Shown: positions 15,114-53,842, counted from the stretch's first letter. The stretch is DNA of 61,448 nucleotides from a virus (IMGVR_UViG_3300036796_000121:1-61448), one strand, 5' to 3'. The notes: generated by a model not told the origin, from the letters alone. Numbers and translations are program-made.

Positions 15114-15542
15114 TTACTCGCCTGTCAATTTTTTTAATTTCTCAAGCTGTTCTTCGATTTCAGCATTTGTGCGAGTCACATTCCCTAAATCACCTTCAAT
15201 CACTTTCTTATCCGTAAGTAAACCGAATCGCTGCATATACAATTGCATTGCTTTTACACTTGGTTGCGGTCCTAAAATTAACTGCATTAGCTTGCTGTAT
15301 ACCTGCTCTCGCTTCTCTGCAAGGAAACTGTCAGCTACTTCGCTCTTAAATGCGATGAAATCCTGGTTCTTAGTTCGCCACTCCCAAAGCGTCGTTCGAT
15401 TTATGCCAAGCTCGTTCGCCATTTCATCTTGCGTCCTTTTTTCCTCATTGTTCGATTCCATCAACTCGTTTTCCACAAGCAAGTATGCTGCTTGAATTTG
15501 TTTGGCCGTGAGTTTCTGCTTTAATTCGTCTAACTTAGCCAT
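15114..15542 (-). CDS. terS: Terminase small subunit (HTH, phBC6A51-type)
   Basis: HTH (TQDEMANELGINRTTLWEW) immediately upstream of terL; probable start MAKLDE. Confidence 0.8.
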   Translation of the reverse strand: MAKLDELKQKLTAKQIQAAYLLVENELMESNNEEKRTQDEMANELGINRTTLWEWRTKNQDFIAFKSEVADSFLAEKREQVYSKLMQLILGPQPSVKAMQLYMQRFGLLTDKKVIEGDLGNVTRTNAEIEEQLEKLKKLTGE

Positions 15543-15739
15543 TCTTTCGCTCCCCTTTCTTCGTGAAATAGAAAAAGGCAACCGATTTAGTATCGATTGC
15601 CTTGAAATTCGTATGTTTTGTATAGCCCCCCGAGTTTAAAAATCCTGGCGGAACGTTACGAGCGCCTGCCAGGCTTGCACCAGAAAGCGGCTCCCCCCGG
15701 GGGCTGAATTTTTTCGCGTACAAAAAGAAAAAGCCGAAA

Positions 15740-16300
15740 TTATTTTTCCGACTCTTTTTTCTTTTTCGCTCGTATTAGTGTACTTTTACTTATTCCTGTC
15801 ATTCCTTCGACTTGTGTATATGAATGCTTATTTAATAAGCCTAGTGCATGTTCAATTTGCTTCTTGCTATATTTATTTGGTCTACCTTCTCTGAAGTCCG
15901 CACGTTGTTTAGCAATAGCTTTACCTTCTTGCGTTCGTTCAACAATCCTGTCACGTTCGAACTCAGCGAACGCACTCATAACATTAAAGACCAACCTTCC
16001 TGTTGGTGTATCCTCTATCAGTCCCATGTTAAGCACATGAACCTTTACACCTTTTTCAAACAGTTCCCTTACAGTCTGTATTGCGTCGACAGTTGAACGA
16101 GCAAAGCGATCTAGCTTAGTAACTACCAGTGTATCACCTGACTCCAGTACTGAAAGCAACTCCTTAAACTTAGGACGATCAGCTTTAGTACCAGTGAACT
16201 TCTCTGAATAAATTATATTGCAACTTTCCTTCTCCAGCGTTTGGATCTGTACGTCTAAGTCTTGGTGAATTGTACTTACCCTTGCGTATCCGTATTTCAT
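15740..16300 (-). CDS. Small serine recombinase (resolvase/invertase)
   Basis: YGYARVST catalytic motif, [11 protein letters not shown]-terminal HTH. Confidence 0.95.
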
Positions 16301-16706: not shown

Positions 16707-17093
16707 TCAAGCCTCGTACAAATTTTTTATTAACCTTCTCATACCAGCCATATCACCGTTAATACTCATGTGCAATAAATCCACGGCTTGTCTACAGCGT
16801 GAGTAATATAATTTTGCAGTGATATTCATAATCCGTAATGTATTCTTCCTAGGAATCTTGTACACATACCGAGCAAGTACTATATATTTTATATTCTTCG
16901 GTAATTGTTTAATCGCCTGATCCAGTACAATCTTATTCAAACGACCATCGCTTTTCCCGTCCTGTGCACTAGGTCCCGTAAAACTAGGTGGTGCATCAGG
17001 GAAACGGTCACCTACAGCCAGTGATTCGTAATTCTCCAGCCATAGTCGTATTGTTTTCTTTGAAACATAGCCATCAATTCTGGTCATCTCCAA
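16707..17093 (-). CDS. Sigma-70 region-4-like / ArpU-like late transcription activator
   Basis: LDQAIKQLP..KYIVLARY..HTH pattern; lies upstream of the packaging genes. Confidence 0.65.
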   Translation of the reverse strand: MEMTRIDGYVSKKTIRLWLENYESLAVGDRFPDAPPSFTGPSAQDGKSDGRLNKIVLDQAIKQLPKNIKYIVLARYVYKIPRKNTLRIMNITAKLYYSRCRQAVDLLHMSINGDMAGMRRLIKNLYEA

Positions 17094-17125: not shown

Positions 17126-17312
17126 AAAAACCTTAAACCATTAATAGTATTACATACTATATAACTATTAATAAATAATACTATATATATAATATATAAT
17201 TATTAGTTTTATATTTATATTATATATATAAGGTATATTTTTTTAAGGGGGGGTTCTTTTTTATTTTGTTTTTCTTTTTTAAATATTGTAGTGTATTAGA
17301 CCCCCTCCTAAA
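17126..17312 (-). repeat. AT-rich element copy 1 (inverted homologue of 47806-47993); candidate origin
   Basis: 34-bp core 17210-17243 is the exact reverse complement of 47875-47908; flanking TTTAGGAGGGGGT and TAAGGTTTTT blocks are also shared. Confidence 0.9.
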
Positions 17313-17322
17313 ACTTTTTCTT

Positions 17323-17625
17323 TTATATATTTTTATTTTCGCTTAAATGACTGCAATCTCGAAACACGTACCACGCCGCAGTTGTCTCATACCCACGTAG
17401 CACCGACTTTCCAGCTAGGAGAAACCGTTCTTCTGTCACTTCCGTTATCAATCCTTCTCCAGCATATACATTACCTTTCTCTGTCTCGATATTCACACCA
17501 CGTAACTGGTTCGTGGCCACAAATTCACTTACCGCATAATCCACAACATATAGACTCCAGGTGAATTTGCCCATAACTACCCCTTCTTGTACCGTCACAT
17601 ATCCATCGTAAAACAGAACGTCCAA
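17323..17625 (-). CDS. Hypothetical protein
   Basis: 100-aa ORF, beta-rich. Confidence 0.55.
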   Translation of the reverse strand: MDVLFYDGYVTVQEGVVMGKFTWSLYVVDYAVSEFVATNQLRGVNIETEKGNVYAGEGLITEVTEERFLLAGKSVLRGYETTAAWYVFRDCSHLSENKNI

Positions 17626-17849: not shown

Positions 17850-19121
17850 TTATACGAATGTTATACCCGCACTTGCGAATCCTGTAATAGCAGTAGCTAT
17901 ATCGAAACCAGGTGTAGTTGATGAAACAACAAGTAATATCTTATCTTGTGGAGCGACCGCAATTGCTTGTGCGCTAATACCACTCGAAGTATCACCGATA
18001 GCAATAAGACCACTAAATGCTGGTGTTAATAATAACGGTGTACCTACTGGAGTGAAAGTATTACTTGCTGCTGGTGCGCTGTACAACTGCATTTGAATTT
18101 GTATGCTTCCTAGTGCTACAGCAACCGCTACAGTTACACTAAAGAATCCTGCTAACGAAGTAATTGTACCTGCGCGAGGTGCTACAAATGCAAAATCAAA
18201 AACTGGAGGTACTGGACCTATAGTAATTGAGCCACCAGGTGGGACAATTACAGGGAAGAATGAACTTCCAAATCCAAGAAGTGCTCCTGTGTTTGCCAAT
18301 CCACCTAAAACAGTTGTTAATGCTACTGGTCCACCTGATGCAAACGGAATAACGGCTCCGGCTCCTGTTGCTCCTGTTAGGCCTGTTGCTCCTGTTGCTC
18401 CTGTTGCTCCCGTTGCTCCTGTTACTCCTGTTGCTCCTGTTGGACCTGTTGCTCCTGTTGCTCCTGTTACTCCTGTTACTCCTGTTGCTCCTGTTGGACC
18501 TGTTGCTCCTGTTGCTCCTGTTGCTCCCGTTGGACCTGCTCCGGTTCCTGCTGGACCTGTTGGGCCTGTTGGACCTGTTGGACCTGTTGGACCTGCTCCG
18601 GTTCCTGCTGGACCTGTTGGGCCTGTTGGACCTGTTGGACCTGTCGCTGCTGGAGTAGCGTTGATTAATTGAATTAATAAACTAAAAAGAAGTTGTAAAG
18701 TTGCAGAATCGACATTTGAGTTGCAGGATATAGGGATAAGATTTAAAGCGAAGAAGAATTGTGCAAGGGCGCTATAAAATTGTTGCAATAATGTTGACAA
18801 TTGTCCTAAATTAGGTGTTGGAGATTGTAATAAAGCTATAATACTTTGAGTTAATTGTTTCAAAAAATTACCTTCTGGGGAAGGTATTAAAGAATTTAAG
18901 AAAATTAAAAATTGATTAAATAAATTGAGTAACGCTAATCTGTTTGCATCACTTGGATTTGCAAAAAATGCTGCAATTGCAGAAATTAGAGAGTTTAACA
19001 AAATAATTAATTGATCTAATTGTTGTCTAGTAATTGGAACTGTTTGAGGGTTATTACAGCATTCTGGATTAAAAGAAAATTCGTTACATTTATTATGGTC
19101 AAAACAATCATTATGTTTCAT
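17850..19121 (-). CDS. Collagen-like exosporium glycoprotein (ExsJ/ExsH-like N-terminus, BclB-type C-terminal domain)
   Basis: [11 protein letters not shown]-terminus, (GXT)n collagen repeats, GAVIPFASG...[20 protein letters not shown]-terminal domain. Confidence 0.85.
18358..18645 (-). repeat. 9-bp tandem repeats encoding G-X-T collagen triplets
   Basis: Runs of cctgttgct / cctgttgga units. Confidence 0.95.
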
Positions 19122-19692
19122 TTACTTCCTCCTTATTTAATAATTTTGAGAGAATATTCTTATACTAAGAAACACTCAAATGTAATGGTGTTGAATATTT
19201 TTAAATATTCATTTTCCTTAGAATAAAAATAGTTACTAATAATTAAACTATAAAAATTCAGTCTAATTATATTCACAACTCACATAATATAATTATACGC
19301 ATCTATATATCTATTGCTTAGATTATTTTCCTAATAAAAACGCATATTTTTAAAGTAATACATTATTACTCCTATCAAAGTGTTTATTTTATCAATAAAC
19401 GAAAAACATATTAATTTATAAGTTCAATAATTCCATTAATAATATCGAATGGATTTTTTTAACAATTACATAAGAAGCTTTTTCATCATTCGAAATATAG
19501 GGTCAGTAAATTTAGTAATATGTAATCTCTCTCCATCTAATCTTCTCCTTAGTTTTTTGAAAAAGTTTAATCCTCGCAACAGGTCTTCATAACCTAGTTG
19601 TTTACATCATGAATTGCTTTCTGATGATGCATTGTATTTTCCATTGAGAGCTAATTGTTTTGCTTTTGCTGACTAATTTTTATTTTTTTGTA

Positions 19693-19830
19693 ACAATTAT
19701 ACTCATCTTACATACAATATCTTGAATCCTTACTTGTCGAACCATTTATTTGTTCATGACTCACAAACATTGACAATATATGAATGGTGTAATGATTCAT
19801 AGAAGAGCACCTTATAATGGTGCTCTTTAT
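19693..19830 (+). ncRNA. Putative sRNA unit M (sigma-K/E-like promoter to terminator)
   Basis: AC-16-CATACAATA (19693-19719); terminator AAGAGCACC/GGTGCTCTT at 19803-19827; no convincing ORF. Confidence 0.45.
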
Positions 19831-20524
19831 TATTTCAGCACCTTTTATATGAATCTGCATACTTTTTTGACCAATTTTCAATGCACTTTCTTAAAGCCTT
19901 AAATAATATGATTGATTATTCAATCCGAGAAAAAGTACTTTTCGAAGACAAATTTTTTCAACACACTAAATATACTTTAAATTTTGATACATACTGTAGA
20001 TACCGTAAGTGTCTTATTTGTTGCTAGTGTAAACGGGACAATTACAAGTTTTCCGATTCCATCAGCGGCTAGTTTTTCTGCAGCAAGATTCTCATTTTCA
20101 AGTCCTATTCCATAATCCATCTTATCCTTTATTAACTTCTATGTTTATTAACAAAGCCAAAATTCTTTATTATAGCCACTACAACAAAAAACACTAAAAA
20201 ATTCGGCTTGCCCCTCTCCCTACTAAGTCGACTATGAGCACTTACGCTAGTTATGCAGGCGCTTTTCATTTAGTAATCCTTCTCTAATTTTTATGTTTCC
20301 TCTTTCTTGTGTTTATAAATCTTCACTTAACGCATTCGTTGAAATATCCTTTATACTTACTCTCCTTACAGAATCATGCTATATTCCTCATTACTAATTC
20401 CACATCGCACGGAACACTAACAATCATTAATTGTTTAGGTATATTCATATAACGTTATCCCCCCTTTAACTTGATAATAGAAATGACTAATAATAAGCTC
20501 CAGCCATAAATAACCACCCATCAA

Positions 20525-20848
20525 CTATCTACACTCCATTTCCGATCTCAATTTATCTCGTAACCACTTAAACTCCATGTCCTTTTTATCGATTTTTGCC
20601 TGAATCACTTTCGCCTGTTCTTTCGTATAACATTTACGGAAACCGTTGTATAATTTCGAAATTTCTTTCTGTAGCTGTCTCATTTCACGGTTCGAATAAT
20701 AACTTACAAATTCCGTTTTACAGCTTGGACAAATGAAGTAGTGCTTGTCCACACGGTTCGGTAATCGTGCAATGAGCATCTGGACGCGAAACACGTGCTC
20801 ACATACTTCACATTTCGCTTTTACGGGTTTCATTTCCTGATCCCTCAC
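20525..20848 (-). CDS. Zn-ribbon hypothetical protein
   Basis: CEVC...CPSC pairs plus a coiled coil. Confidence 0.75.
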   Translation of the reverse strand: MRDQEMKPVKAKCEVCEHVFRVQMLIARLPNRVDKHYFICPSCKTEFVSYYSNREMRQLQKEISKLYNGFRKCYTKEQAKVIQAKIDKKDMEFKWLRDKLRSEMECR

Positions 20849-20858
20849 TTTGAAAGGA

Positions 20859-21128
20859 TTATTTTGCTGAATTTCGCAAAAACTGAATTCCGAATCCTCT
20901 TTCTTTATTAAACTCCCTCATCCATTCATCTTTGTAAACCTGATGTAAACGACCATACAAGTTTATAGTCATTTTCTCCCTCACTATTGGTAGGCTATTA
21001 GGAACACTCGTAGGTAATGCCGCTCCTTCTATTGCTAACGTCATATATTTATCACAGAAATCAACATCGATTCCTTCATTATTTGGATTACATGTTTCCT
21101 TTCCGCACATCGGACAAATATCAACCAC
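20859..21128 (-). CDS. Hypothetical protein (Cys-rich N-terminus)
   Basis: GGAGG/GAGGG RBS; CPMC motif. Confidence 0.7.
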   Translation of the reverse strand: MVDICPMCGKETCNPNNEGIDVDFCDKYMTLAIEGAALPTSVPNSLPIVREKMTINLYGRLHQVYKDEWMREFNKERGFGIQFLRNSAK

Positions 21129-21144
21129 TTCCCTCTACCTCCCT

Positions 21145-21253
21145 GAATAAAAATCGACATTCCGTCAATACTATAGACACCTAGTTGAGACAAGACCTCC
21201 ATTAGGTGAGCAGTTAGCTTTTGCGGTTCGCGCCCTTGCTAGCTGCTCTTTTT
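21145..21253 (+). ncRNA. Putative sRNA unit A (sigma-G-like promoter to terminator)
   Basis: GAATA-17-AATACTA; CACCTA/TAGGTG stem enclosing ACCTCC; GAGCAGTTAGC...GCTAGCTGCTC-T5 terminator. Confidence 0.6.
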
Positions 21254-21513
21254 ATTTTCCCCTTTTCTACAAAATGAAATTTTTATACCAATCCTCATCA
21301 AGTGTTACAACAATTGTGTCACTCCTTGTCTTCTTCTTTTAGCCAATTCATTTTAATATAGCTATATCCTATACCTTCTAATAAATTTTTTTTTAGAAGA
21401 TTACAAACACATGTTTATTGCCCATTCCTCAAACAACCCATACCCGCATAAATTATTAAGTATCTAAAATCCATAATTGATAATTATTTTAATCAAAAGA
21501 GAGGAGTGTTAAT

Positions 21514-21801
21514 ATGGACATCAATAATCAACAATCTTATACCCCTATTGATTATTATCGAGAGCCTCAGCAATCCTTATATCCACAATCACATAACCTT
21601 CAACAACAAACTCTTACTATAATAACTCCAGCTGTTAGTCATGGGTTACGAGAAGCCCAGCACCTTGGCTATCGACATGCATTAACAGAAGCTGTTGCCA
21701 TAGGATACTTGATGGGAAGAGGTTACAATTATAATGCTGCTTGGAAAACCGTTGAGTCTTGGTGGAGACCGCCAGGGACTCCACTTCCTACGCCGTACTA
21801 A
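21514..21801 (+). CDS. Hypothetical moron protein (Gln/Pro/Tyr-rich N-terminus; sporulation-type)
   Basis: GAGGAG RBS; opposite strand to phage genes; upstream CATAAATTA sigma-K-like -10. Confidence 0.75.
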   Translation: MDINNQQSYTPIDYYREPQQSLYPQSHNLQQQTLTIITPAVSHGLREAQHLGYRHALTEAVAIGYLMGRGYNYNAAWKTVESWWRPPGTPLPTPY

Positions 21802-21891
21802 AGTTATTAATAAAGTCTTTAATTTGAAAAGTATTACTATATAGTGCACTTTTGAGTACGGAGAATTTCTACAAAATGAAGTTTTTATTAA

Positions 21892-22026
21892 GTTCACTTC
21901 CGTATAACTTTTCCAATCTTGTTTACACTACAACTGTAACTTAAGGTTACACATCATTACTTGTAGGGCCTAATTTTCTTTTGTACAACAAGTAGTTAGC
22001 TAATTAAGCTGGCTGCCTTGTTGTGC
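21892..22026 (+). ncRNA. Putative sRNA unit B1 (direct repeat of 24199-24333)
   Basis: GTATA-17-TACACTA promoter; TGTAAC/GTTACA hairpin; terminator at 21985-22024. Confidence 0.6.
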
Positions 22027-22051
22027 CTAATGAAGTCTTTATTGAATTTAT

Positions 22052-22175
22052 GAATAAATCTATAAATCCCAGACCAAACTACTCATGAGCTATTACAGAT
22101 ATAGCTCAATCTTCAAAAAATAAACGTAAAAAGTTCATTCACTTGGCAGACAGTTTTTACAATTGTCTGCCAAGT
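22052..22175 (+). ncRNA. Putative sRNA unit C
   Basis: GAATA-18-CAAACTA; TGAGCTAT/ATAGCTCA hairpin; 15-bp terminal stem at 22141-22175. Confidence 0.55.
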
Positions 22176-22187
22176 AATATTTTACGT

Positions 22188-22326
22188 ACATAATTTCAAA
22201 AACAAAATTCATACTATATATAGGTCTAAATTTCTAAATCCTCATTTCAGCCTTTGGCTTTAGACCTAATAAGTTGCTCTTTTCTCCTGAAGAGCTGAGC
22301 AGTTAGCTTTTGCTAGCTGCTCTTTT
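22188..22326 (+). ncRNA. Putative sRNA unit D
   Basis: ACATA-17-CATACTA; TAGGTCTAAA/TTTAGACCTA stem; GCTCTT/AAGAGC stem with loop TTCTCCTG; conserved terminator at 22297-22326. Confidence 0.65.
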
Positions 22327-22367
22327 ATTTAAAACAATGCCATCTGCCCACTTTTATTCTGCTCTTC

Positions 22368-22562
22368 TTATTCTTTTACTCTCTTCTCAAGCCTTTGTAT
22401 TTCTTGATTTAAAAGATGGTTCGTTTTATTGTTGTTATTCCTTGTTTTAAGACATCTCTCATGAACCACGTTGTCATATTGATCAAGTATCCATTCATCT
22501 TCAAATACCCAATCCTCACAAATAGGAAATTCAGCTATGATACAACCAGACGCCATATCCAT
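22368..22562 (-). CDS. Small hypothetical protein (possibly truncated phage gene)
   Basis: GGGGG RBS; degenerate Zn-binding pattern (PIC...HERC). Confidence 0.5.
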   Translation of the reverse strand: MDMASGCIIAEFPICEDWVFEDEWILDQYDNVVHERCLKTRNNNNKTNHLLNQEIQRLEKRVKE

Positions 22563-22570
22563 TCCCCCTT

Positions 22571-22675
22571 GAATAAATTCCTAAATTTTGTCCATACTAT
22601 AAATACACTTAATGATTGAACTTCCTTCTTAACTTTTTTGGGAGAGCAGTTAGCTTTTGCTAACTGCTCTTTTTT
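22571..22675 (+). ncRNA. Putative sRNA unit E
   Basis: GAATA-17-CATACTA (sigma-G consensus); CTTCCTTC segment; AGAGCAGTTAGC-TTTT-GCTAACTGCTCT terminator with T-tail. Confidence 0.65.
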
Positions 22676-22684
22676 AGTTTGTCC

Positions 22685-22812
22685 GAATAAAATTCTAAAT
22701 TCTGTCCAATACTATACATAGGCTGATACAGCTTGAATTCACAGTGACCTCTTTAATTTTCTTTTCCCTTTCTCTGAGGGCTTAGCAGTTAGCTTTTGCT
22801 AGCTGCTTTTTT
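22685..22812 (+). ncRNA. Putative sRNA unit F
   Basis: GAATA-18-AATACTA; pyrimidine-rich body; AGCAGTTAGC-TTTT-GCTAGCTGCT terminator with T-tail. Confidence 0.6.
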
Positions 22813-22814
22813 GT

Positions 22815-22911
22815 TCTTATTTTTCTACTTATTACATACATTTTTAACGTGTTCATTTTGTTCACTGAGTTACCTCCTATCTGTAGAGCAACCTAAATGG
22901 GTGCTCTTTTT
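22815..22911 (+). ncRNA. Putative sRNA unit G
   Basis: CATACATT sigma-E-like -10 at 22835; TACCTCCT at 22871-22878; AGAGCA/TGCTCT terminator with T-tail. Confidence 0.45.
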
Positions 22912-23011
22912 CAATTTCTCCTTCACTACAAAATGAAATTTTTGTTACATATATCTGCAGAAAATGACACCAATAATAGAAAATAAATTAGAATTAATAA
23001 CTTAATTAATT

Positions 23012-24091
23012 CTACTCTTTACTTTGTAATAAGTTATTAAAATATTGATGATTATACACCACTGCTGGATGATCTGGTATATATTTTGCTGCCAATTCAT
23101 TATAATAATATGCTTTTTCATAGTCCCCTAAATGGCTATGGCACAAGGATAATTGGAAATATGGAATCCAAGTATAGCTTGCGGGATTGCAAAGTAACGC
23201 CTCAGTAGGACAATTGATTCTGATAGCCGCTAAATACCAACGAATTGCTTCCTTATATTTTTGTTGCGCCATCATGGCATGCCCTATACCTACACACATT
23301 TCTCCTCTTGGAGTTCCATATTGAAATGTTCTCATGTATGCCTCTATTGCTTTATCCCATTTTTGAAGTTCTGCATAACAATATCCTAAATTCCCATATA
23401 CATAAATATACTCTTCCCCCCACTCCCCTTTGCTCTCTAATACATTTTTATACTGTTGAATTGCTTCATCATATTTCCCCCGAAACATACATTCATTCGC
23501 ATAATTAAACCTATCTGTATTAGTAGCTTCTTTTGCTTCAACTATGGATCGAAGAATGTTAAAATTCTGATCAATCCGCGGCCTTTCTTTACAATGAGTA
23601 ATAACTATATCACTGTGCGCTGTATTTCCTTGGACCTGTATTACTTCATGCACTTTATTAATCCATTTAAAATTTCTTGAGCGTTTAACAAGTCTATGAC
23701 GAGTTGCAATATACATCGGTTTATCATCTAAACTCACCCCCAAATGATAAAACATTGAAATTGCATCAATATCAGGATCTATTTCTTGTTTTAATTTTAA
23801 AAATTTCTGCTGATCTTTTTCAAATAGCACATCATCAGCATCTAGCCATAAAATATAATCTTTTTTTGCTTTAGAAAACGAAAAATTTCTAGCGGCTGCA
23901 AAATTATCATTCCACTTATAATCATAAATGTTATCTGTATACTTCCGAACAATATCTTTTGTTTTATCTGTAGACCCAGTATCTACAATCACTATTTCAT
24001 CAACTATATGTTTTATGGAATCTAAACACCTCGCAATAACCTGTTCCTCATCTTTTACAATCATACATAAACTAATTGTTATTTGAGTCAA
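23012..24091 (-). CDS. GT2-family glycosyltransferase with TPR repeats
   Basis: ISLCMIVKDEE, IVDTGSTD, FAAARN, WLDADD and VHE motifs followed by TPRs; TTG start at 24091 after GGGGGGAG. Confidence 0.92.
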   Translation of the reverse strand: MTQITISLCMIVKDEEQVIARCLDSIKHIVDEIVIVDTGSTDKTKDIVRKYTDNIYDYKWNDNFAAARNFSFSKAKKDYILWLDADDVLFEKDQQKFLKLKQEIDPDIDAISMFYHLGVSLDDKPMYIATRHRLVKRSRNFKWINKVHEVIQVQGNTAHSDIVITHCKERPRIDQNFNILRSIVEAKEATNTDRFNYANECMFRGKYDEAIQQYKNVLESKGEWGEEYIYVYGNLGYCYAELQKWDKAIEAYMRTFQYGTPRGEMCVGIGHAMMAQQKYKEAIRWYLAAIRINCPTEALLCNPASYTWIPYFQLSLCHSHLGDYEKAYYYNELAAKYIPDHPAVVYNHQYFNNLLQSKE

Positions 24092-24198
24092 GATAACTCC
24101 CCCCTTTGATTTACTATATTCAGGATCCAAAGATAACTTATCTACACAAATATTTTTTGTATGTTTAGACATTAAATATAAAATGAAGGTTTTATTAC

Positions 24199-24333
24199 GT
24201 TCACTTCCGTATAACTTTTCCAATCTTGTTTACACTACAACTGTAACTTAAAGTTACACATCATTACTTGTAGGGCCTAATTTCCTTTTGTACAACGAGC
24301 AGTTAGTTTTATTAACTAGCTGCTTTGTTGTGC
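24199..24333 (+). ncRNA. Putative sRNA unit B2 (direct repeat of 21892-22026)
   Basis: 135-bp near-identical copy with stem-preserving substitutions. Confidence 0.6.
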
Positions 24334-24360
24334 TTAATAAGGTTTTTATTTATTTTTCTT

Positions 24361-24476
24361 GCATAACATTTTCGCTTCTGCTCATACTATAGTTGCAACC
24401 TTAATTTACAGTGTATTGTGGGTATCGTCATTGTTGGACGATAAAGCAGTTAGTTCGTTGAGCTAGCTGCTTTATC
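24361..24476 (+). ncRNA. Putative sRNA unit H
   Basis: GCATA-17-CATACTA (sigma-G consensus); 17-bp stem GATAAAGCAGTTAGTTC/GAGCTAGCTGCTTTATC. Confidence 0.65.
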
Positions 24477-24702
24477 ATTTACTAAGTACAAAATAGCATT
24501 TTTATTACAATTCCAGATTTATGATTTCTCCTTGAAGTTCAATTGAGAGAATTCAAAAAACAAATCGTATAAAATCTATTATTTATCTATTATTTTTACA
24601 AATATAAAATTTCACCTAAGTGACACTTCACAACCTTAATACATATACTATGTACCATCTACATTTATATAAATTCCAAATTTAAAGTGAGGGAAAACAA
24701 AG

Positions 24703-24933
24703 ATGGCATCTTGTACAGGAATAGCTTGTTATTTACTTTCTAATTGGACGATAGGAACTATCATTACAGTAACAACCAAGTCTGGACAAATAATCGGTCC
24801 CGCTACTCTCTCTAATTTTTATCCAACACTTTGTTTAGTTATATTAAAAGAGGAAGATATAATAACCCCTGAATCTACTAATATCATATTTATAGGTTGT
24901 GAAGATATTGAAAGTGTTACCTTAACAGTTTAA
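24703..24933 (+). CDS. Small Cys-containing moron protein (spore-coat-like)
   Basis: GAGGG RBS; upstream AC-17-CATATACTA sigma-K-type promoter at about 24623-24650. Confidence 0.65.
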   Translation: MASCTGIACYLLSNWTIGTIITVTTKSGQIIGPATLSNFYPTLCLVILKEEDIITPESTNIIFIGCEDIESVTLTV

Positions 24934-25127
24934 TATAGTACTTCTATTATTTGAAAACTTACTATTCTATTTTTTAATTGTGTTATATCAAGCATCCTTA
25001 ACAGGGTATTTCTAATTCATTTAAAATACCCTGAACCAATCTTTTGCAATCAAATTTACTATCAAAAGAACTATTCCCATTACATATCTCAACTTTTTCA
25101 TTTCACAATTCCCTTCAAATAACGATT

Positions 25128-25253
25128 TTATTTGATATCCATTTCCTCTTGCATCAGAACTACAGTTTTAAGCATTACCTGCTCAGAGTCTTTTTCATTC
25201 AAATATGGCTTTACGATTTCTAAAATTGCAGTGATCCATTCAGATTTGTTCAC
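25128..25253 (-). CDS. 41-aa hypothetical protein (not in ORF track)
   Basis: AGGTGAGG RBS, GTG start, MNKSEWITAILEIVKPY...; stop codon lies inside the 18-bp boundary motif. Confidence 0.5.
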   Translation of the reverse strand: MNKSEWITAILEIVKPYLNEKDSEQVMLKTVVLMQEEMDIK

Positions 25254-25287
25254 GTCCTCACCTCTATCGTTAAATAAAGATATACAG

Positions 25288-25426
25288 TTGCACTTCTAAT
25301 TAGCATAGTGTTATAATGCCTTGAAACCTCCTATAGAAATTTCCATATACTTTCCTTTAGGATTTTTCATACAATCTCATAAGAGTTCTCTAATCACAGC
25401 CCCTTGACGCGCACCGTTAGGGGCTG
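25288..25426 (+). ncRNA. Putative sRNA unit I (sigma-A promoter)
   Basis: TTGCAC-18-TATAAT with extended TG; ACCTCCT at 25326-25332; CAGCCCCT/AGGGGCTG stem. Confidence 0.5.
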
Positions 25427-25459
25427 AACTCATTTAAATAAAGGTTTTGTTAAAAAACT

Positions 25460-25548
25460 CACACTCTGAGAAAAAACACATATATTATCATGTACTCTTT
25501 TACAATAAGAGTCTTGGTCTAAAGAGCGCACGGGAAAGTGCTCTTTTT
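25460..25548 (+). ncRNA. Putative sRNA unit J (sigma-K-like promoter)
   Basis: AC-16-CATATATTA; ACTCTT/AAGAGT hairpin; AAAGAGCGC/GTGCTCTTT terminator. Confidence 0.5.
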
Positions 25549-25680
25549 ATTTGTTGTTAAATAACTATTTTATTAAATTTCTCAATTCACAAAGTACTAA
25601 CTTTATAAAATGAGTTCATACATATTTATTGAATACATTTTAAATTCTTGTAAAATCAAATAATTTAGGAGCTGATTAGT

Positions 25681-25875
25681 ATGACAAGTAAACCACTAGT
25701 AATAACGCTTCCTCCTATATCAAAAACCAAAATTACATTTTATTCTTCTTCTGGCGAAGTAATTAACCACACTTTTTTAACAAACGAAACTTCAGAACCT
25801 ATAGCAACGTTTGCACATTGCCCTATAGAATTCGAAAGATTTGAAACTAAAAGAATGCCAGTCCTTATAAAATAA
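25681..25875 (+). CDS. Small hypothetical moron protein
   Basis: AGGAG RBS; upstream CATACATAT -10-like box; downstream hairpin TAATCCCC/GGGGTTA. Confidence 0.6.
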   Translation: MTSKPLVITLPPISKTKITFYSSSGEVINHTFLTNETSEPIATFAHCPIEFERFETKRMPVLIK

Positions 25876-25989
25876 TTTTTCATAGATAATCCCCTAAATT
25901 CCCTAGATTTCAGGGGGTTATTTCATATCAAATAACGCTTTTGTGCTTTTAAAACCGATTAACTATTCTTTAAAACATTGGATAAATAT

Positions 25990-26120
25990 TTCTAATGTTT
26001 CTTCTAAACATTCATGATATTATTTTGTTTAGTGACTGGTTTTCACCAACCTGAGAACTCAGTAGCTTCATCCATAGGTCCTACTCTCACCATTCCCTTT
26101 TGAGAGTAGGGCCTTTTATT
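25990..26120 (+). ncRNA. Putative sRNA unit K
   Basis: Two small hairpins, then 14-bp stem AGGTCCTACTCTCA/TGAGAGTAGGGCCT with C-rich loop CCATTCCCTTT and T-tail; promoter uncertain. Confidence 0.45.
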
Positions 26121-26229
26121 TATAAGGAGTATCCCAACGTTCTCTACATATTTGTACAAAATTCAAATTTGATATTTATCAAAATCTTCAATACCATGTA
26201 AAATTTACGTAAAGATTGCTATGACTCAG

Positions 26230-26339
26230 CCTGTCCACCCCAGAAACGTTATATAATGAATTTGCAAACACCTAGTTTGCACACAAGTACCTTTCTGTAC
26301 GACATAACTCTTTTGCTAGGAGAAATCCTAGCCTTTTTT
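26230..26339 (+). ncRNA. Putative sRNA unit L
   Basis: TATAAT at 26252; TGCAAAC/GTTTGCA hairpin; GCTAGGA/TCCTAGC terminator; shares ACACCTAGTT and ACAAG with unit A. Confidence 0.4.
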
Positions 26340-26348
26340 ATTTAATTT

Positions 26349-27125
26349 CTAAACCAAGACGTTCTCAGGTTTTATCACCATTTTCGTTTTAAATCGATAG
26401 CCCTTACTTTCTAAGTAAGCAGTAAGTACTAATGCACTTTTCCCAAACCTTTCCGCGATTGCATCTACCGTGTACCCTTTTTCAAATAGATCTAAACTAA
26501 TCCGTATTTCATCTTCTGTATAAGATGCCTGACTTTCTACTGGCCTCTCAAAAAATCCGAGATCTTCCAGTCTTCTTTTCACTGCATTTTCTGTACGCTG
26601 CAATCGTTTAGCGATATCCAAATATGTGTAGCAATTTGCTTTCACCATACTTCGAAGCAGTAACTCCTCTTCTTTGGTCCAGTGATACCCCTCCTTTTTC
26701 CTTCTATACACATCGGCATCTCGTTTCTCTTTCATCCATTTCGGTTCAGGTCCTAAAATGCCGTATTCAACCTTCGAAAAATCAACCACCTGCTTGTGTC
26801 GTTTTAACCACTCCCAAAAATCCTTGTAATAAACAACCCTTACTTTTTGAGTTCTTGCGAATATTTTTAGCCTTATAGGAAATGAAAATCGTTCGTACCA
26901 CGATTCGATTGTTTTATAACTTACATGTAATACGTCTGCTAATTGAAGCACTGTAAGTCCATTAAAATGTAATCGTGGATCACTTAACCCGATACGATTT
27001 GCTTTTAGTTTTATAGCATTAACAGTACGTCCTAACTTTTTTGCTATATGTTTAATGCTGTATGTTCCCCATGAATCCTCCAGATACACCAACTCTTCTT
27101 TTGTCCAAAGAGTAACTTTCCCCAC
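26349..27125 (-). CDS. Multi-HTH (Myb-like WTxEE repeats) DNA-binding protein
   Basis: Repeated WTKEE...IAKKLGRT..A helix-turn-helix units. Confidence 0.7.
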   Translation of the reverse strand: MGKVTLWTKEELVYLEDSWGTYSIKHIAKKLGRTVNAIKLKANRIGLSDPRLHFNGLTVLQLADVLHVSYKTIESWYERFSFPIRLKIFARTQKVRVVYYKDFWEWLKRHKQVVDFSKVEYGILGPEPKWMKEKRDADVYRRKKEGYHWTKEEELLLRSMVKANCYTYLDIAKRLQRTENAVKRRLEDLGFFERPVESQASYTEDEIRISLDLFEKGYTVDAIAERFGKSALVLTAYLESKGYRFKTKMVIKPENVLV

Positions 27126-27139
27126 CGTTTCGCCTCCTT

Positions 27140-27679
27140 TTAGTACCCGGATGCCTGACGATCATGATTGATTTTATTTTTTTCGATATACGCGTTGTAA
27201 ATTTCAATAGCTGTAAATCCAAGTGCTGCGCCTAAGTATGCTAAGTCATTCATTAATGTCATATAATGAGCTGCGGTCCATAACTTGTTTTCATATAAAT
27301 CGTTAAACACATCGATAATTTCTGTTTTTGTATTTCCTTTGCTATTACGCACTACAAAAGCATCGATATATTTATTCCATTCACGTTCTAAACCGATCGA
27401 TAAAGCAAAATGAAGCGTGTCTACAAATTCGTCTAGCAATGGATTGTAGTATTCCTTATCCTCTTCCATCATTTGACCCTCATTACGCACAGCTTTTGTA
27501 ATTGGTTTGCTATTTTCGCTCCAGAACTTATGGCCACGCCACACATGAAGTAACTCACTTAATTCATCACGAAATGATAATTTCTTTTCTTGAAACAACG
27601 GCACATTTTGTAAACCACGTTTTTCCACAATCTTGTTATCAAGTACTTTTTGAAGCTGGAATAAATGAGTGATATTCAT
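27140..27679 (-). CDS. dut: Dimeric (all-alpha) dUTPase
   Basis: ELSEL..W..HKFWS, DEFVDTLHF and YIEKNKINHDRQ motifs. Confidence 0.9.
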   Translation of the reverse strand: MNITHLFQLQKVLDNKIVEKRGLQNVPLFQEKKLSFRDELSELLHVWRGHKFWSENSKPITKAVRNEGQMMEEDKEYYNPLLDEFVDTLHFALSIGLEREWNKYIDAFVVRNSKGNTKTEIIDVFNDLYENKLWTAAHYMTLMNDLAYLGAALGFTAIEIYNAYIEKNKINHDRQASGY

Positions 27680-43069: not shown

Positions 43070-43378
43070 TCAGCTCCCTACAGTTGTATCTTTGTAATGA
43101 GGATATTCTTCAAAAAATTGTTCTTCAGGCGGGAATCCCAGCTCAAATGACAGTTTAACTTCTTTCTTACTGGCGTTTTGCAAGTAAGCAGGTAAATAAA
43201 AATGTTCCATAGGGAACCCAAGTACAATTGCGATTTGCAAGGCTAATTTTCCTCCTGGATCACGTCTACCAGTCTCTAAGTCTGCAATATGACCTGGAGT
43301 CACACCAACCTTATCTGCTAGAGCCGCCTGCGACATACGTTTTTTTCCACGTAAATCTGCCAACCAAGTCCTTTTCAT
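43070..43378 (-). CDS. Cro-like XRE HTH regulator
   Basis: SQAALADKVGVTPGHIADLETG; divergent from the cI-like gene. Confidence 0.85.
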   Translation of the reverse strand: MKRTWLADLRGKKRMSQAALADKVGVTPGHIADLETGRRDPGGKLALQIAIVLGFPMEHFYLPAYLQNASKKEVKLSFELGFPPEEQFFEEYPHYKDTTVGS

Positions 43379-43676
43379 ATGTCCACCTCCAGACAACCTT
43401 TAATGATTTTTATTATACTGGCGTTTTGCAAGTAAGTAAAGTGGTATTTCAAATTTTTTTTATGTTTTTAATGCCCTTGATTAGAAAATGAACGTATTTT
43501 TTAAAATTTTCACTTGCAATATGCGTACATTTTCCATTGTGCAATTACGTCATAAAGTGTTATCTTATATATAGATAACAGCAAAAAAATAAAAAGCATT
43601 TTATATTTTTTATAAATTTTATTAAAAACAAAACCATTAAAAATATAATAAAGAATTTTACCGGGAGGTAATATAC

Positions 43677-44015
43677 ATGAACATTGGGGCACAATTAAAA
43701 TTTTTACGAAATAGACGTGGTTGGACAATGCAAGAAGTCGCAGATCGTATTGGTAAAAATGATTCTACGTATAGCGGATATGAGACAAATAAAAGAAAAC
43801 CAAACGCCGAAGTTCTTGTACAACTAGCCGATACCTTCGATACTACTACAGACTTTATTCTAGGGAGAACAGAAAATCCAAACGGCCTTAACTTTAATGT
43901 AAAAGACTTTTTAGATCAGGGTAGACTACACTCTGACGGGGTAGAAATCACAGATGAGCAAGCTGAACTTGTTAACGTTTTATTAAGACAAGTTCTACAA
44001 AGAAAACAGCAATAA
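43677..44015 (+). CDS. CI-like XRE repressor (no peptidase domain)
   Basis: TMQEVADRIG..STYSGYETNKRKP HTH; TTDFILGR. Confidence 0.9.
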   Translation: MNIGAQLKFLRNRRGWTMQEVADRIGKNDSTYSGYETNKRKPNAEVLVQLADTFDTTTDFILGRTENPNGLNFNVKDFLDQGRLHSDGVEITDEQAELVNVLLRQVLQRKQQ

Positions 44016-47668: not shown

Positions 47669-47805
47669 AATTACCGCTCCTTTCATCGATCTCCAAATAT
47701 ATTATGTCTGAATTATATAACTCCAAGAGTAAACTGGCAATCTATTACCAACGCAAAAAGACGACTTACTACAGTCGTCAAAATAAAATATATAAATCTC
47801 AAAAA

Positions 47806-48018: not shown

Positions 48019-48639
48019 TTAAACACCTGGGACAACATACACCTTTGCATATACATCATATTTAGCTGCAAGTTGCTCCAGCTTTTTTTGTCGATATTCC
48101 GTCACTGTAAAGAAATGTATCAAAGGTATTTTCCCACTATATTTATTTTTATAATATAATGAAAATTCCCTGTAACGACTCATCTTTTCCGCGTTCACAT
48201 TCATCATCTGAGTCCGATCTATTTCTACAGCATTTAATATCCCTTCTTCATCTCGAAACTTCACATCAGGAATAATTGTCTTCTTTTTATCATCTACTTT
48301 ATAACGTATAGGTATTTCTATCTGCCAGTCATCCGGACAAAACAGATAGAGCCATGCTTCATTTCTCATTAAGCTGTGCGCTAATCGACTATTTGGTACA
48401 ATCTTTTCTGTATCGTCGAATAGTTCACGGCCCTTTTTATTTAAGTAATACACGTACTCTTTTTGATACACCGCGTTATTTACGTACTGACTAAGGTCTT
48501 TTAAAATACGGTTCGCGTTACGAATCCCACCCATTTCATGCACCGCCATTAAATGCCTACGTGTTGCGAACTTCAGCTTTCTAATCGAGGTCAAAATCGT
48601 CATCTGACGGTTTATTTTGATATGAGTCTGGATGTTCAT
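48019..48639 (-). CDS. Replication-relaxation family protein
   Basis: wHTH N-terminus, HSLMRNE, IIPD, AVEIDR motifs; coupled to FtsK. Confidence 0.85.
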   Translation of the reverse strand: MNIQTHIKINRQMTILTSIRKLKFATRRHLMAVHEMGGIRNANRILKDLSQYVNNAVYQKEYVYYLNKKGRELFDDTEKIVPNSRLAHSLMRNEAWLYLFCPDDWQIEIPIRYKVDDKKKTIIPDVKFRDEEGILNAVEIDRTQMMNVNAEKMSRYREFSLYYKNKYSGKIPLIHFFTVTEYRQKKLEQLAAKYDVYAKVYVVPGV

Positions 48640-53803: not shown

Positions 53804-53842
53804 TGTATAATGATAGTAAATCACACGAATCGAGGGATCATC

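Follow-up and report, generated by a model that had tools for sequence, protein, structure and literature searches.

Described systems with which the present locus can be compared are the OOP RNA of phage lambda, a short antisense transcript that pairs with the early polycistronic message, and the bcr1-bcr18 repeat elements of the B. cereus group, whose mobility one account associates with the motif TTTAT (PMC6542083). The window analysed here (the whole stretch of DNA, 61,448 nt) comes from a temperate Bacillus cereus-group phage, a lifestyle proposed in the initial annotation and borne out by a serine integrase, HTH repressor-type regulators, an AimR-like regulator and an endolysin. On the plus strand of its 19.7-26.3 kb region, one grammar recurs antisense to the phage genes, namely a promoter-like pair followed by a variable body of 30-80 nt and a hairpin with a T-run, making up an array of ~14 tiny promoter-to-terminator units. 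The units have no match in Rfam and, as the initial annotation supposed, no earlier description was found in open-access text. The reading we favour, held with about as much doubt as belief, is that the array would encode sibling small RNAs timed to sporulation, with transcription, sigma factors, targets and effect all predicted from the sequence.

The plus-strand grammar is present at the coordinates originally named and exceeds chance expectation, with 13 terminator-like sites between 18500 and 27500, 11 of them on the plus strand, compared with 3.0±1.5 in shuffles (n = 50). A 15-nt upstream motif (AAATAAGGATTTTGTT-like) has 10 copies in the window versus 2.07±1.5 in shuffles, nine of which lie on the plus strand between 21380 and 25560, and 13 of the 14 predicted RNAs have fold z-scores of -2.7 to -7.8, the sole exception being unit 8 (-0.97 for 22850-22915). 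Two families can be distinguished: family 1 combines TGAATAAA / N17 / CATACTATA-like boxes with one conserved terminator hairpin, and family 2 combines AC / N16 / CATAnnnTA boxes with a covarying AGAGCRC hairpin. The region had been called ORF-poor; it is indeed an array of short units, but three small plus-strand protein genes and several minus-strand genes lie inside it. The features are as follows (z, fold z-score; motif, the upstream motif; transcription start sites of the units are estimates):

17850..19121, minus strand: collagen-like protein with collagen repeats and a BclB-related exosporium glycoprotein C-terminal domain (NCBIfam TIGR03721, 9.2e-51; 172 bits versus a cut-off of 93), just outside 19690-26345.
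19693..19835, plus strand: unit 1, sigma-K/E-like; AC (19693-19694), 16-nt spacer, CATACAATA (19711-19719), body of ~80 nt, AGAGCAC/GTGCTCT hairpin (19802-19828), T-rich tail; z -3.70.
20525-20848, 20859-21128 and 22368-22562, minus strand: genes within the array stretch.
21145..21258, plus strand: unit 2; GAATA (21145-21149), 17-nt spacer, AATACTA (21167-21173), ACCUCC in the body, family-1 terminator with an inserted inner hairpin and T-run (21208-21248); z -4.34; nearly identical unit in L017.
21514-21801, plus strand: small protein gene (95 aa) with ribosome-binding site, no family match and no homologue in the collected loci.
21870..22049, plus strand: unit 3, the first of two 180-nt repeat copies (D1; 88% identity with 24177-24356); motif (21875-21889), GTATA (21902-21906), 17-nt spacer, TACACTA (21924-21930; CATACTAT in homologues at other loci), extended family-1 hairpin without a clean T-run (21984-22025); z -3.26.
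22052..22185, plus strand: unit 4; GAATA (22052-22056), 18-nt spacer, CAAACTA (ending 22081), 15-bp hairpin with weak T tail (22141-22175); z -7.82; no homologues among the collected loci (coverage 0).
22188..22330, plus strand: unit 5; ACATA (22188-22192), 17-nt spacer, CATACTA (22210-22216), two-hairpin body with UUCUCC in one of the loops, family-1 terminator (22297-22322); z -5.84.
22571..22680, plus strand: unit 6; strict sigma-G consensus GAATA, 17-nt spacer, CATACTA (22571-22599), unstructured 5' body with GAACUUCCUUCUUAA, family-1 terminator (22640-22673); z -4.87.
22685..22815, plus strand: unit 7; GAATA (22685-22689), 18-nt spacer, AATACTA (22708-22714), CU-rich body, family-1 terminator (22784-22807); z -2.70; homologues in L021, L167 and L200.
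22835..22915, plus strand: unit 8, the weakest; -10-like CATACATT (22835-22842) lacking a convincing -35 box, UUACCUCCUAUCU in the body, AGAGCAACC/GGGTGCTCT hairpin with T-run (22885-22907; repeat D9); kept in prophage array L231.
23012..24094, minus strand: GT2-TPR gene, for a family-2 glycosyltransferase with TPR repeats (Pfam Glycos_transf_2, 3.7e-23, plus TPR families; PHROG moron category).
24177..24356, plus strand: unit 9, second copy of the 180-nt repeat; motif (24182-24196), GTATA (24209-24213), 17-nt spacer, TACACTA (24231-24237), extended family-1 hairpin (24290-24332); z -3.26.
24336..24478, plus strand: unit 10; motif (24336-24350), strict sigma-G GCATA, 17-nt spacer, CATACTA (24361-24389), family-1 terminator (24445-24470); z -5.15; relatives 87-93% identical in phages 11143 and MY192 and in IMG/VR loci.
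24703-24933, plus strand: small protein gene (76 aa) with ribosome-binding site and no family match; sigma-K-like AC-N17-CATATACTA box at ~24622-24649 and hairpin at ~25005-25035 (feature 24622..25035).
25288..25432, plus strand: unit 11; AAACCUCCUAUAG at the 5' end, sigma-A-like TTGCAC (25288-25293), 18-nt spacer, TATAAT (25312-25317) preceded by TGT, a promoter read by eye and missing from the promoter scan of 18500-27500; hairpin with a poor T tail (25398-25424), kept in L002 and L004; z -4.06.
25437..25552, plus strand: unit 12 (family 2); motif (25437-25451), AC (25461-25462), 16-nt spacer, CATATATTA (25479-25487), terminator (25521-25546); z -2.76; predicted RNA of ~59 nt with a 5' hairpin, single-stranded CUUGGUC and the terminator.
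25681-25875, plus strand: small protein gene (64 aa) with ribosome-binding site and a BA_2335-like match below the Pfam cut-off; motif before (25560-25574) and terminator after (25897-25919; feature 25560..25919).
26030..26125, plus strand: unit 13, two hairpins, the second (~26076-26114) with a CCAUUCCCUUU loop and T-run; no promoter assigned; z -6.88; four homologous matches among the loci.
26252..26340, plus strand: unit 14; TATAAT-like box near 26252 without a good -35, two small hairpins, terminator GCTAGGA/TCCTAGC with T-run (26315-26332), also found ahead of family-1 units in L133 and L178; z -4.62.

The AGCAGTTAG..CTAGCTGC hairpin occurs in six plus-strand copies (21209, 22298, 22645, 22784, 24298 and 24445) with a diverged seventh at 21992, matching the seven-unit terminator family first proposed, and is absent elsewhere in the 61,448 nt, the only other match being the palindromic reverse reading of the 22645 copy; the three AGAGCA/TGCTCT-type hairpins lie at 19802, 22885 and 25521, again as claimed. 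In 69 of 70 cluster representatives the family-1 terminator is more stable as plus-strand RNA, a signal that is largely one inherited wobble, and the stem variants GCTAGC, GCTAAC, GCTGGC, GCTGAC and GTTAGC can pair on the plus strand alone. Covariation is seen in the family-2 stem (AU 14, GC 7, UA 1), which also contains G·U pairs; these would be A·C on the other strand and thus place the hairpins on plus-strand RNA. Folding of the bodies is without strand asymmetry (34 vs 29, 7 equal). Relative to neighbouring coding sequence, 100 units are antisense to most of it, 60 mixed and 7 on the same strand, a further 37 having too little flank to be classified, and none of 111 loci carries units on both strands.

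These observations bear on a reading without any plus-strand RNA, in which the repeats would be modules of the minus-strand message or of the DNA: portable leaders before ribosome-binding sites (5' stabilisers, processing sites or standby ribosome sites) or, in a variant, conserved boundaries promoting the exchange of small-gene cassettes between phages. Indeed, the -35 box lies near a divergent start codon or ribosome-binding site in 50 of 204 units, at 14-18 nt in 40 of them, and the 50 partner proteins represent 32 unrelated clusters. Within the window, the -35 box is 17 nt from the GTG start (21128) of 20859-21128 in unit 2 and 9 nt from the start codon of 22368-22562 in unit 6. Units are also present or absent before the same gene, with two true empty sites, established by inspection (L024 at 4776 and L189 at 12918), among six genes flagged; one body occurs with two spacer types, a mosaic pattern, and the minus strand carries Shine-Dalgarno-like purine runs. 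However, on the plus strand, and there alone, a T-run (at least five T in the next 9 nt) follows 120 of 129 unique hairpins, and the commonest stem has an A·C mismatch on the minus strand. Moreover, most window units are arranged in tandem with no minus-strand gene that they could serve, the 17±1 box spacing has no minus-strand reading (TTGACG there has no -10 partner, as judged by eye), and the minus-strand mini-ORFs are in different frames. We regard this cis-acting reading as distinctly unlikely.

Many related phages and plasmids carry the same units, which are unannotated. The family-1 terminator (AGCAGTTAGC/GCTAGCTGCT) was found with a T tail in 204 unique units, forming 84 body clusters across phage and prophage loci. 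All 14 genome loci with units have Bacillus titles (13 name a species), as do 36 of 38 phage records and 237 of 238 plasmid records, so that among the records searched these units are restricted to B. cereus-group hosts. Alignments made on whole units, A1 (25 sequences, family 2) and A2 (36 sequences, unit-6 type), show that the promoter boxes are conserved in homologues: the -35 AC is invariant and the -10 CAT nearly so (90% or more) in A1, and A2 has invariant A9, T10 and A12 in GAATAA and invariant A30 and T34 in the -10 box, whereas its spacer columns 14-25 include no invariant column. For the unit-6 type, 35 unique relatives were found, which share a nearly invariant GAACTTCCTTCTTA core. 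Hence the independent plus-strand cassettes antisense to phage genes proposed initially are kept in related phages, with conserved boxes and drifting spacers.

Restriction to one clade, occurrence at up to eight places per record, insertion polymorphism and the TTTAT-containing tails that follow many units would also suit selfish or neutral B. cereus-group repeats accumulating in phage and plasmid DNA, like the bcr1-bcr18 or MITE-type elements, in which the promoter and terminator look would be incidental. The bcr elements were compared with the units by description rather than by sequence. This explanation appears very improbable, given that the two empty sites show neither terminal inverted repeats nor target duplications, the strand is fixed relative to the phage genes, the bodies are hypervariable, unlike MITE copies, which resemble one another from end to end, and conservation is concentrated in the promoter boxes and stem pairing.

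Within the array region, the strict sigma-G pattern GHATR-N17/18-CATWHTA occurs at 22571 and 24361 only, both on the plus strand, with a further match at 48937 and none on the minus strand. The pattern scan thus confirms the two perfect matches among the eight sites named sigma-G-like in the initial annotation; the other six, read by eye, are one or two bases off consensus. Among 83 units sampled by their terminator alone, six have a strict match upstream on the same strand (controls: four downstream, none on the opposite strand and 0.15 in shuffles), and of the 84 clusters 22 include a strict member and 71 a relaxed match. The sigma-G label is accordingly too specific. The commonest subfamily has GTCAATACTG at -10, which we take to be closer to the sigma-F pattern, and the cluster with most members (48 of 204 units) carries CAATACTGTA there, an exact fit to no consensus. 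Promoters of the host clade speak for the sporulation reading, with GTATA-N17-CATACTA upstream of a SASP gene in a B. thuringiensis genome and GGATA-N17-CATTCTA upstream of sspK, but such SASP promoters are themselves loose, and a sequence match is therefore weakly diagnostic. The sigma-G, -F and -E consensus strings used here are those of the initial annotation and of general background, and the examples taken from a paper are of sigma-K and sigma-F; one sigma-K promoter is given there as CATATACT with an AC-containing -35 (PMC4383634). On this basis, the family-1 boxes fit the forespore (sigma-G/F) consensus and those of family 2 the mother-cell sigma-K consensus, the corresponding sigma factors being putative.

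The gene neighbourhood indirectly connects the arrays with the spore. A GerPA/PF spore-germination gene (Pfam, 6.5e-22) is present in 12 loci of related arrays, in all 12 on the units' strand. The upstream motif stands before it, and the promoter pattern AC-N16-CATATACTA matched there in four of the five loci displayed. The sporulation reading of the initial annotation thus receives indirect support from co-oriented GerPA/PF genes behind the family-2 promoter module and by the BclB-related neighbour, but not in its sigma-G specificity. Protein genes of the same arrays share the motif, promoter type and similar terminators; the L167 homologue of 24703-24933 is co-oriented with the units and has the motif and an AC..CATATCCTA box ahead of it. 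This sharing would also be expected if the units were promoters and terminators left behind after deletion of the protein-coding part of accessory cassettes, a scenario we consider extremely improbable: the bodies contain no plus-strand ribosome-binding site or ORF remnant, particular bodies are kept across many phages (as in the unit-6 type), and the bodies are enriched in CU-rich motifs. Specifically, CU-rich 5-mers occur in 41 of 68 bodies compared with 24.8±4.2 in Markov simulations, none of 500 reaching the observed value, an enrichment equivalent to that of Shine-Dalgarno-like sequences on the opposite strand.

The arrays lie at the distal end of the early operon, 1-3 kb upstream of an ArpU-type late regulator, as seen in phages 11143 and MY192 and two plasmid-borne prophages. 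This position and the antisense orientation would also suit genuine antisense sRNA genes that the housekeeping polymerase transcribes, perhaps aided by a phage activator, in the lysogen or the lytic cycle rather than in sporulation; such units, likened to OOP RNA, would adjust the transition from early to late genes. Sigma-A-like boxes are found in units 11 and 14, TTGAAT-N18-CATACT in some units allows a weak sigma-A reading, and the gene beside the array at 26349-27125 specifies a DNA-binding regulator that contains a sigma-70 region-4 domain. Yet sigma-70-like promoter matches are not enriched in 18500-27500 (35 vs 40.3±6.5 in shuffles), the conserved family-1 -35 box is TGAATAAA or TGCATAA with TTG unconserved, family 2 keeps exactly AC and CATAnnnTA, and the promoter module is common to the co-oriented GerPA/PF genes, making a housekeeping origin rather unlikely in our estimation.

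Under the favoured sporulation-timed reading, the array would comprise about a dozen independent non-coding RNA genes of ~60-110 nt each, situated in an accessory region between early (replication) and late (packaging) genes and transcribed against the phage genes. Each would consist of a sporulation-type promoter, often preceded by an A/T-rich motif around -60 to -43, a variable body, in many cases containing a hairpin and an exposed CU-rich stretch resembling an anti-Shine-Dalgarno sequence, and an intrinsic terminator. The RNAs may pair with the complementary read-through phage transcript, so that late-gene progress would be silenced in the sporulating cell, or alternatively in trans with ribosome-binding sites of other mRNAs; no trans target emerged, a 14-nt seed returning just another array and a same-sense coding match in one host genome. 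Together with the exosporium BclB-like gene and, in relatives, GerPA/PF, the units could form a spore-directed accessory island built on the same promoter module. In the window, the BclB-like gene and the moron-type GT2-TPR gene lie on the phage strand, opposite to the units, the latter between both copies of the 180-nt repeat.

The array proposed in the initial annotation was borne out: the grammar of promoter, variable body and terminator recurs on the plus strand between about 19.7 and 26.3 kb, where 14 units could be delimited, and the interpretation placed on it, a battery of small RNAs expressed during sporulation, found partial support overall. The stretch 18500-27500 contains 13 terminator-like sites, 11 of them on the plus strand, compared with 3.0 ± 1.5 in shuffled sequences, and sigma-70-like promoter matches are not enriched there (35 versus 40.3 ± 6.5 in shuffles). 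Six copies of the hairpin AGCAGTTAG..CTAGCTGC were located, each of them plus-strand and together spanning 21209-24470, and a seventh, which has diverged, is found at 21992, in agreement with the seven-unit terminator family described initially (family 1); the three AGAGCA/TGCTCT hairpins of the second family (family 2) are likewise present, at 19802, 22885 and 25521. When folded, 13 of the 14 predicted unit RNAs yielded z-scores of -2.7 to -7.8, and unit 8 a z-score of -0.97. The array stretch also encodes three plus-strand small proteins and several minus-strand genes.

The window contains 10 copies of a 15-nt A/T-rich upstream motif of the type AAATAAGGATTTTGTT, nine of which are plus-strand copies within 21380-25560 (2.07 ± 1.5 in shuffles). 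Relative to the estimated start sites of two protein genes and of units 3, 9, 10 and 12, the motif is centred on the stretch from about -60 to -43, from which we infer that it occupies the position of a UP element or an activator site. By-eye comparison of the motif with consensus strings gave no fit to GerE or SpoIIID sites, and Spo0A boxes are not a feature of the window (TGTCGAA found once, 7.6 ± 2.6 expected). Units 3 and 9 belong to a duplicated 180-nt segment (21870-22049 and 24177-24356, 88% identity). Between the two copies lie units 4-8 and a GT2-TPR glycosyltransferase gene (23012-24094, minus strand); judging from the repeats, the intervening segment could be lost or exchanged by recombination. 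In locus L167, an 89% identical GT2-TPR gene neighbours a copy of the window's 76-aa gene that has 97% identity.

The possibility that the hairpins serve only as terminators of minus-strand transcription, raised together with the initial annotation, is made unlikely by T-runs, G·U pairs and covariation, all of which place the hairpins on the plus strand. Intrinsic terminators combine a G+C-rich hairpin with a T-run behind it on the strand that is transcribed, and 11 plus-strand sites have this form; units 3, 9 and 11 have no clean T-run. At least five T residues fall within the 9 nt after the hairpin in 120 of 129 unique family-1 hairpins. The commonest family-1 stem includes a plus-strand U·G pair that would read C·A on the minus strand, and for 69 of 70 cluster representatives the plus-strand RNA forms the more stable hairpin, although this is largely one inherited feature. 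Stem variants hold plus-strand pairing through A/G changes opposite U, with a double compensatory change in one copy, and the family-2 stem covaries at one pair (AU 14, GC 7, UA 1) and has G·U at four positions. The bodies, in contrast to the hairpins, show no strand preference in folding (34 versus 29, with 7 equal, among the 70 cluster representatives). From start site to stem end, the predicted RNAs have a median length of 70.5 nt (range 25-99). Minus-strand mini-ORFs of 5-12 codons behind SD-like runs were rejected as genes because their start, frame and length differ among subfamilies.

Eight units had been assigned to sigma-G. Under the consensus used here (-35 GHATR, spacer of 17-18 nt, -10 CATWHTA, taken from the initial annotation), the assignment holds strictly for those at 22571 and 24361, and the other six depart from it by one or two bases. 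Across the whole window, strict GHATR-N17/18-CATWHTA is found at 22571, 24361 and 48937, with no occurrence on the minus strand. To avoid selecting on the promoter, new loci were scanned with the terminator only; among the matches listed, a strict sigma-G pair was located upstream on the same strand in 6 of 83 unique regions, compared with control counts of 4 (downstream), 0 (opposite strand) and 0.15 (shuffles). With a relaxed promoter pattern, the corresponding counts among the matches listed were 21 upstream, 8 downstream, 9 on the opposite strand and 1.65 in shuffles. The relaxed pattern missed the commonest family-1 subfamily, TGAATAAAACTCAATATTCCGTCAATACTGTAGA; after widening for TGAATAAAACTCAATATTCCGTCAATACTGTAGA, a promoter-like pair was found in 71 and strict sigma-G in 22 of 84 clusters, which comprise 204 unique units with a T tail among the matches listed.

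Conservation in homologues, proposed as a test of the promoter matches, gave a favourable outcome, in that boxes are kept and spacers vary in two alignments of sequences gathered by whole-unit similarity. In the 36-sequence alignment of the type of unit 6 (22571..22680), columns G7-A13 (GAATAAA), G26, T27 and A30-A37 (ATACTATA) are invariant or at least 90% conserved, spacer columns 14-25 are variable, and one body is joined to two distinct spacer types. The unit-6-type body carries the spacer of the commonest subfamily in five loci (L022, L024, L053, L099 and L133), indicating that promoter and body modules recombine near the transcription start. In the 25-sequence alignment of the unit-12 type, the -35 AC is invariant, C44, A45, T46 and the final -10 A are at least 90% conserved, and the upstream motif is conserved next to a variable spacer. 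Unit 12 (25437..25552) itself displays the features expected of sigma-K promoters (AC at -35, a 16-17-nt spacer, CATAnnnTA), namely AC, N16 and CATATATTA. Published examples are CATATACT with an AC-containing -35 box for sigma-K and GTATA with GGGGAGGCTA for sigma-F (PMC4383634). For comparison within the host clade, GTATA-N17-CATACTA precedes a SASP gene in a B. thuringiensis genome and GGATA-N17-CATTCTA precedes sspK; further SASP promoters are looser, so that sigma-G matches in the clade run from strict (L224) to loose. By these sequence criteria, the unit promoters belong with the sporulation sigma classes.

The units are widespread among mobile elements of the same host group. By megablast, the array interval aligns only patchily, to 33 phage records, and what aligns are the small units rather than the protein genes. 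A pattern linking the -10 box to the terminator matched at least 119 IMG/VR stretches and, among the matches listed, retrieved 73 complete units in 44 of 124 loci. In bacterial genomes sampled at one per species, all 14 matches bear Bacillus titles; 13 name species that belong to the B. cereus group, and the remaining one reads "Bacillus sp.". Matches were obtained in 38 of 50,697 phage records, 36 of them Bacillus phages and the other two the record "Staphylococcus phage SpaA1" (HE614281.1 / NC_018277.1), and in 238 of 72,556 plasmid records, all but one from Bacillus (237/238). The two plasmid contexts inspected are both prophage-like, with ArpU, RecU and integrase. SpaA1 and Bacillus phage BceA1 share a terminator element at the same position, and the host label of the SpaA1 record looks doubtful. 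In none of the matching phage or plasmid records are the units annotated as RNA, the labels being either absent or those of overlapping hypothetical proteins.

With respect to coding sequence within ±3 kb, 100 units are antisense to most of it, 60 are mixed and 7 co-directional (37 have too little flank), and none of 111 loci carries units on both strands. Among the matches listed, 50 of 204 units have the start of a divergent ORF no more than 70 nt from the -35 box, at 14-18 nt in 40 of them. Antisense RNAs of type I toxin-antitoxin systems would be expected to overlap a fixed partner gene encoding a small hydrophobic toxin, and this reading was rejected because the 50 divergent proteins (35-131 aa) fall into 32 unrelated clusters, leaving no fixed partner gene; many units have no adjacent gene at all. 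A unit can be present or absent before one and the same gene in different phages, with two clear empty sites, at which neither the inverted terminal repeats nor the TTTAT target duplications expected of bcr repeats or MITEs of the B. cereus group were seen.

Comparison with phage records identifies the window phage as a phBC6A51/PHBA67-T-like siphovirus of the B. cereus group, with nearly all long ORFs on the minus strand. By its gene content it is temperate, since it encodes an integrase, HTH repressor-type regulators, an AimR-like regulator and an endolysin.

Protein-coding features of the window around and beyond the array ("before" and "after" refer to the array in the direction of phage transcription)
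13382-15097, 571-aa ORF without a family match, after
15114-15581, HTH_Tnp_1_2-domain protein, after
15740-16300, minus strand, second, small serine recombinase of the invertase type, after, adjoining the HTH_Tnp_1_2-domain gene
17850-19121, minus strand, collagen-like protein (GPT/GAT triplet repeats) whose C-terminal domain is of the BclB-related exosporium glycoprotein type (TIGR03721, 9.2e-51, 172 bits)
26349-27125, three-HTH regulator, before
27140-27679, dUTPase, before
43070-43396 and 43677-44015, HTH repressor-type regulators
44512-45675, minus strand, AimR-like regulator (Pfam AimR 2.5e-29; PHROG transcriptional regulator 6.6e-105)
46205-47686, serine integrase
48581-49765, minus strand, FtsK/SpoIIIE-like protein
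52320-53759, plus strand, ApeA-like protein with HEPN domain (ApeA_NTD1 2.1e-41, HEPN_Apea 5.7e-17)
53810-54196, plus strand, YolD-like protein, directly after the ApeA-like gene
55666-56730, endolysin

From its position only, we take the HTH_Tnp_1_2-domain gene to be a putative small terminase subunit gene. In PHBA67-T and phBC6A51, the slot equivalent to the array is occupied by small minus-strand genes; phBC6A51, a prophage of B. cereus ATCC 14579, does harbour family-2 units.

The link to sporulation comes from the sigma assignments made on sequence, and gene context adds weight to it. A spore germination gene of the GerPA/PF family (Pfam 6.5e-22) is present in 12 related array loci, in all 12 on the units' strand (4394-4609 in L238, 4581-4796 in L239 and 10 further loci); these genes are preceded by the upstream motif, and the regular expression AC-N16-CATATACTA, for a sigma-K-like promoter, matched in four of the five loci displayed. 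BclB-like domains were found in 10 loci, 8 of them on the units' strand, whereas the window copy is on the opposite strand. Several BclB-like genes are directly downstream of unit-12-type elements, so that read-through from unit into gene is possible. PHROGs labels the collagen-like protein of the window a tail fibre; it may decorate the virion or the spore.

Of 68 bodies, 41 contain CU-rich 5-mers that resemble anti-Shine-Dalgarno sequences, compared with 24.8 ± 4.2 under a first-order Markov model (0 of 500 simulations reached the observed value); in the predicted folds of window units 2, 5, 6, 7, 8, 11 and 13, these 5-mers are placed in loops or at unpaired 5' ends. Two modes of action can be envisaged: unit RNAs would pair with the perfectly complementary read-through phage message, or in trans with ribosome-binding sites of other messages. 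The former is possible because the only two minus-strand terminator-like sites in 18500-27500 are both weak. For the latter, the complement of the 14-nt conserved seed of unit 6 gave no trans target in one B. thuringiensis genome; of its two exact matches, one is another array, and the second, within coding sequence, has the orientation of the small RNA itself and is thus not a target. BLAST of the 68 bodies against 2.0 Mb of collected loci likewise revealed no targets among the matches inspected; 44 bodies matched outside the terminator pattern, and those inspected are the same bodies joined to variant terminators.

We consider the chances about even that the units are sporulation-timed small RNAs. 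As to their role, we favour silencing of early-to-late read-through of the phage in sporulating cells, because several phages carry their array a short distance upstream of the late regulator. A broader and distinctly more speculative proposal is that the units constitute an exchangeable phage library of compartment-specific small RNAs, which would silence lytic genes in the developing spore and, together with GerP- and BclB-like proteins, reprogramme spore surface and germination. A standard scaffold of forespore or mother-cell promoter and terminator would then frame interchangeable seed bodies, of which more than 80 types were seen, with modules recombining at the promoter and at the terminator; the whole would amount to a phage-run RNA regulatory layer of sporulation.

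The units appear to be undescribed as a family. In Rfam 15, no match reached the gathering threshold; the five matches at E ≤ 1 (best, 29.6 versus 100 bits) all belong to eukaryotic or unrelated families, and neither tRNA nor tmRNA was found. Literature listings and abstracts, which cover phage small RNAs as well as small RNAs of sporulation in B. subtilis and C. difficile, contained no description of such arrays, in line with the novelty claimed initially. CsfG, SurA and SurC are sporulation-controlled small RNAs of Bacillus subtilis, each encoded by a single chromosomal gene. They resemble the units in being short non-coding RNAs of an endospore former with sporulation-sigma promoters and intrinsic terminators; the units, however, are borne by phages and plasmids, in arrays, and form large families that share promoter and terminator around variable bodies. 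By analogy, the units may work like sibling small RNAs and lambda OOP. LhrC1-5 of Listeria are sibling small RNAs, and RsaE/RoxS are C-rich, UCCC-motif RNAs of Firmicutes; the likeness consists in adjacent related RNA genes, each with its own promoter and terminator, and exposed CU- or C-rich stretches (predicted for the units) that might pair with Shine-Dalgarno sequences, but there is no sequence relation, the promoter type differs and the unit bodies are far more diverse (84 clusters). Lambda OOP is also an RNA of ~70-100 nt with its own promoter and terminator, directed against an early phage operon in a cis-antisense-like manner. It is encoded by one gene, whose sigma-70 promoter is controlled by LexA, whereas the units number up to 14 per phage and have boxes of the sporulation type.

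Among phage elements, morons are accessory genes flanked by their own promoter and terminator. The GerPA/PF-like and BclB-like genes of the arrays fit this definition, and the units share with morons their autonomy between phage genes and, as predicted, expression independent of the lytic programme, but most encode no protein. The start-associated sequences (SAS/ESAS) of cluster K mycobacteriophages are similarly conserved intergenic elements immediately before the starts of many unrelated small phage genes; unlike the units, they act on the coding strand, without promoter-terminator grammar on the opposite strand. The B. cereus-group repeats bcr1-bcr18 are described as interspersed, intergenic, 100-400 nt long and clade-restricted, and some are transcribed and predicted to act as RNA (PMC6542083, PMC3446304). 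Compared by description rather than by sequence, they resemble the units as clade-restricted intergenic repeats, but they are described there as mostly chromosomal, whereas the units are borne by phages and plasmids.

Few small RNAs are controlled by sporulation sigma factors; these are poorly understood, and to our knowledge none is phage-borne. If the proposed reading is true, phages of spore formers carry dozens of families of cell-type-specific regulatory RNAs, offering a direct route to test what a prophage does in the forespore (self-silencing, survival of dormancy, resumption at germination) and whether phages alter spore traits, such as exosporium and germination, relevant to ecology and food safety. 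Since every record seen either leaves the units without annotation or treats them as hypothetical proteins, a covariance model would allow hundreds of phages, prophages and plasmids of the B. cereus group to be annotated better.

Several further observations concern regulation and the accessory genes. AbrB/SpoVT-family DNA-binding proteins are encoded in the same accessory region of relatives (L001 1262-1543, L229 4855-5136 and L239 7666-7944) and are possible candidate regulators of the units; none was seen in the window. At 17130-17300, between gene 16707-17093, which has a weak sigma region-4-like match (E 0.0018), and gene 17323-17625, the window is extremely A/T-rich, with TATATA-type runs and a CATACTATA box at 17153 on the plus strand. 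The AimR-like gene hints that the phage may use an arbitrium-type peptide signal. The ApeA-like gene, probably a prophage-borne defence gene, and its YolD-like neighbour are on the opposite strand to most phage genes, within a stretch of reversed GC skew.
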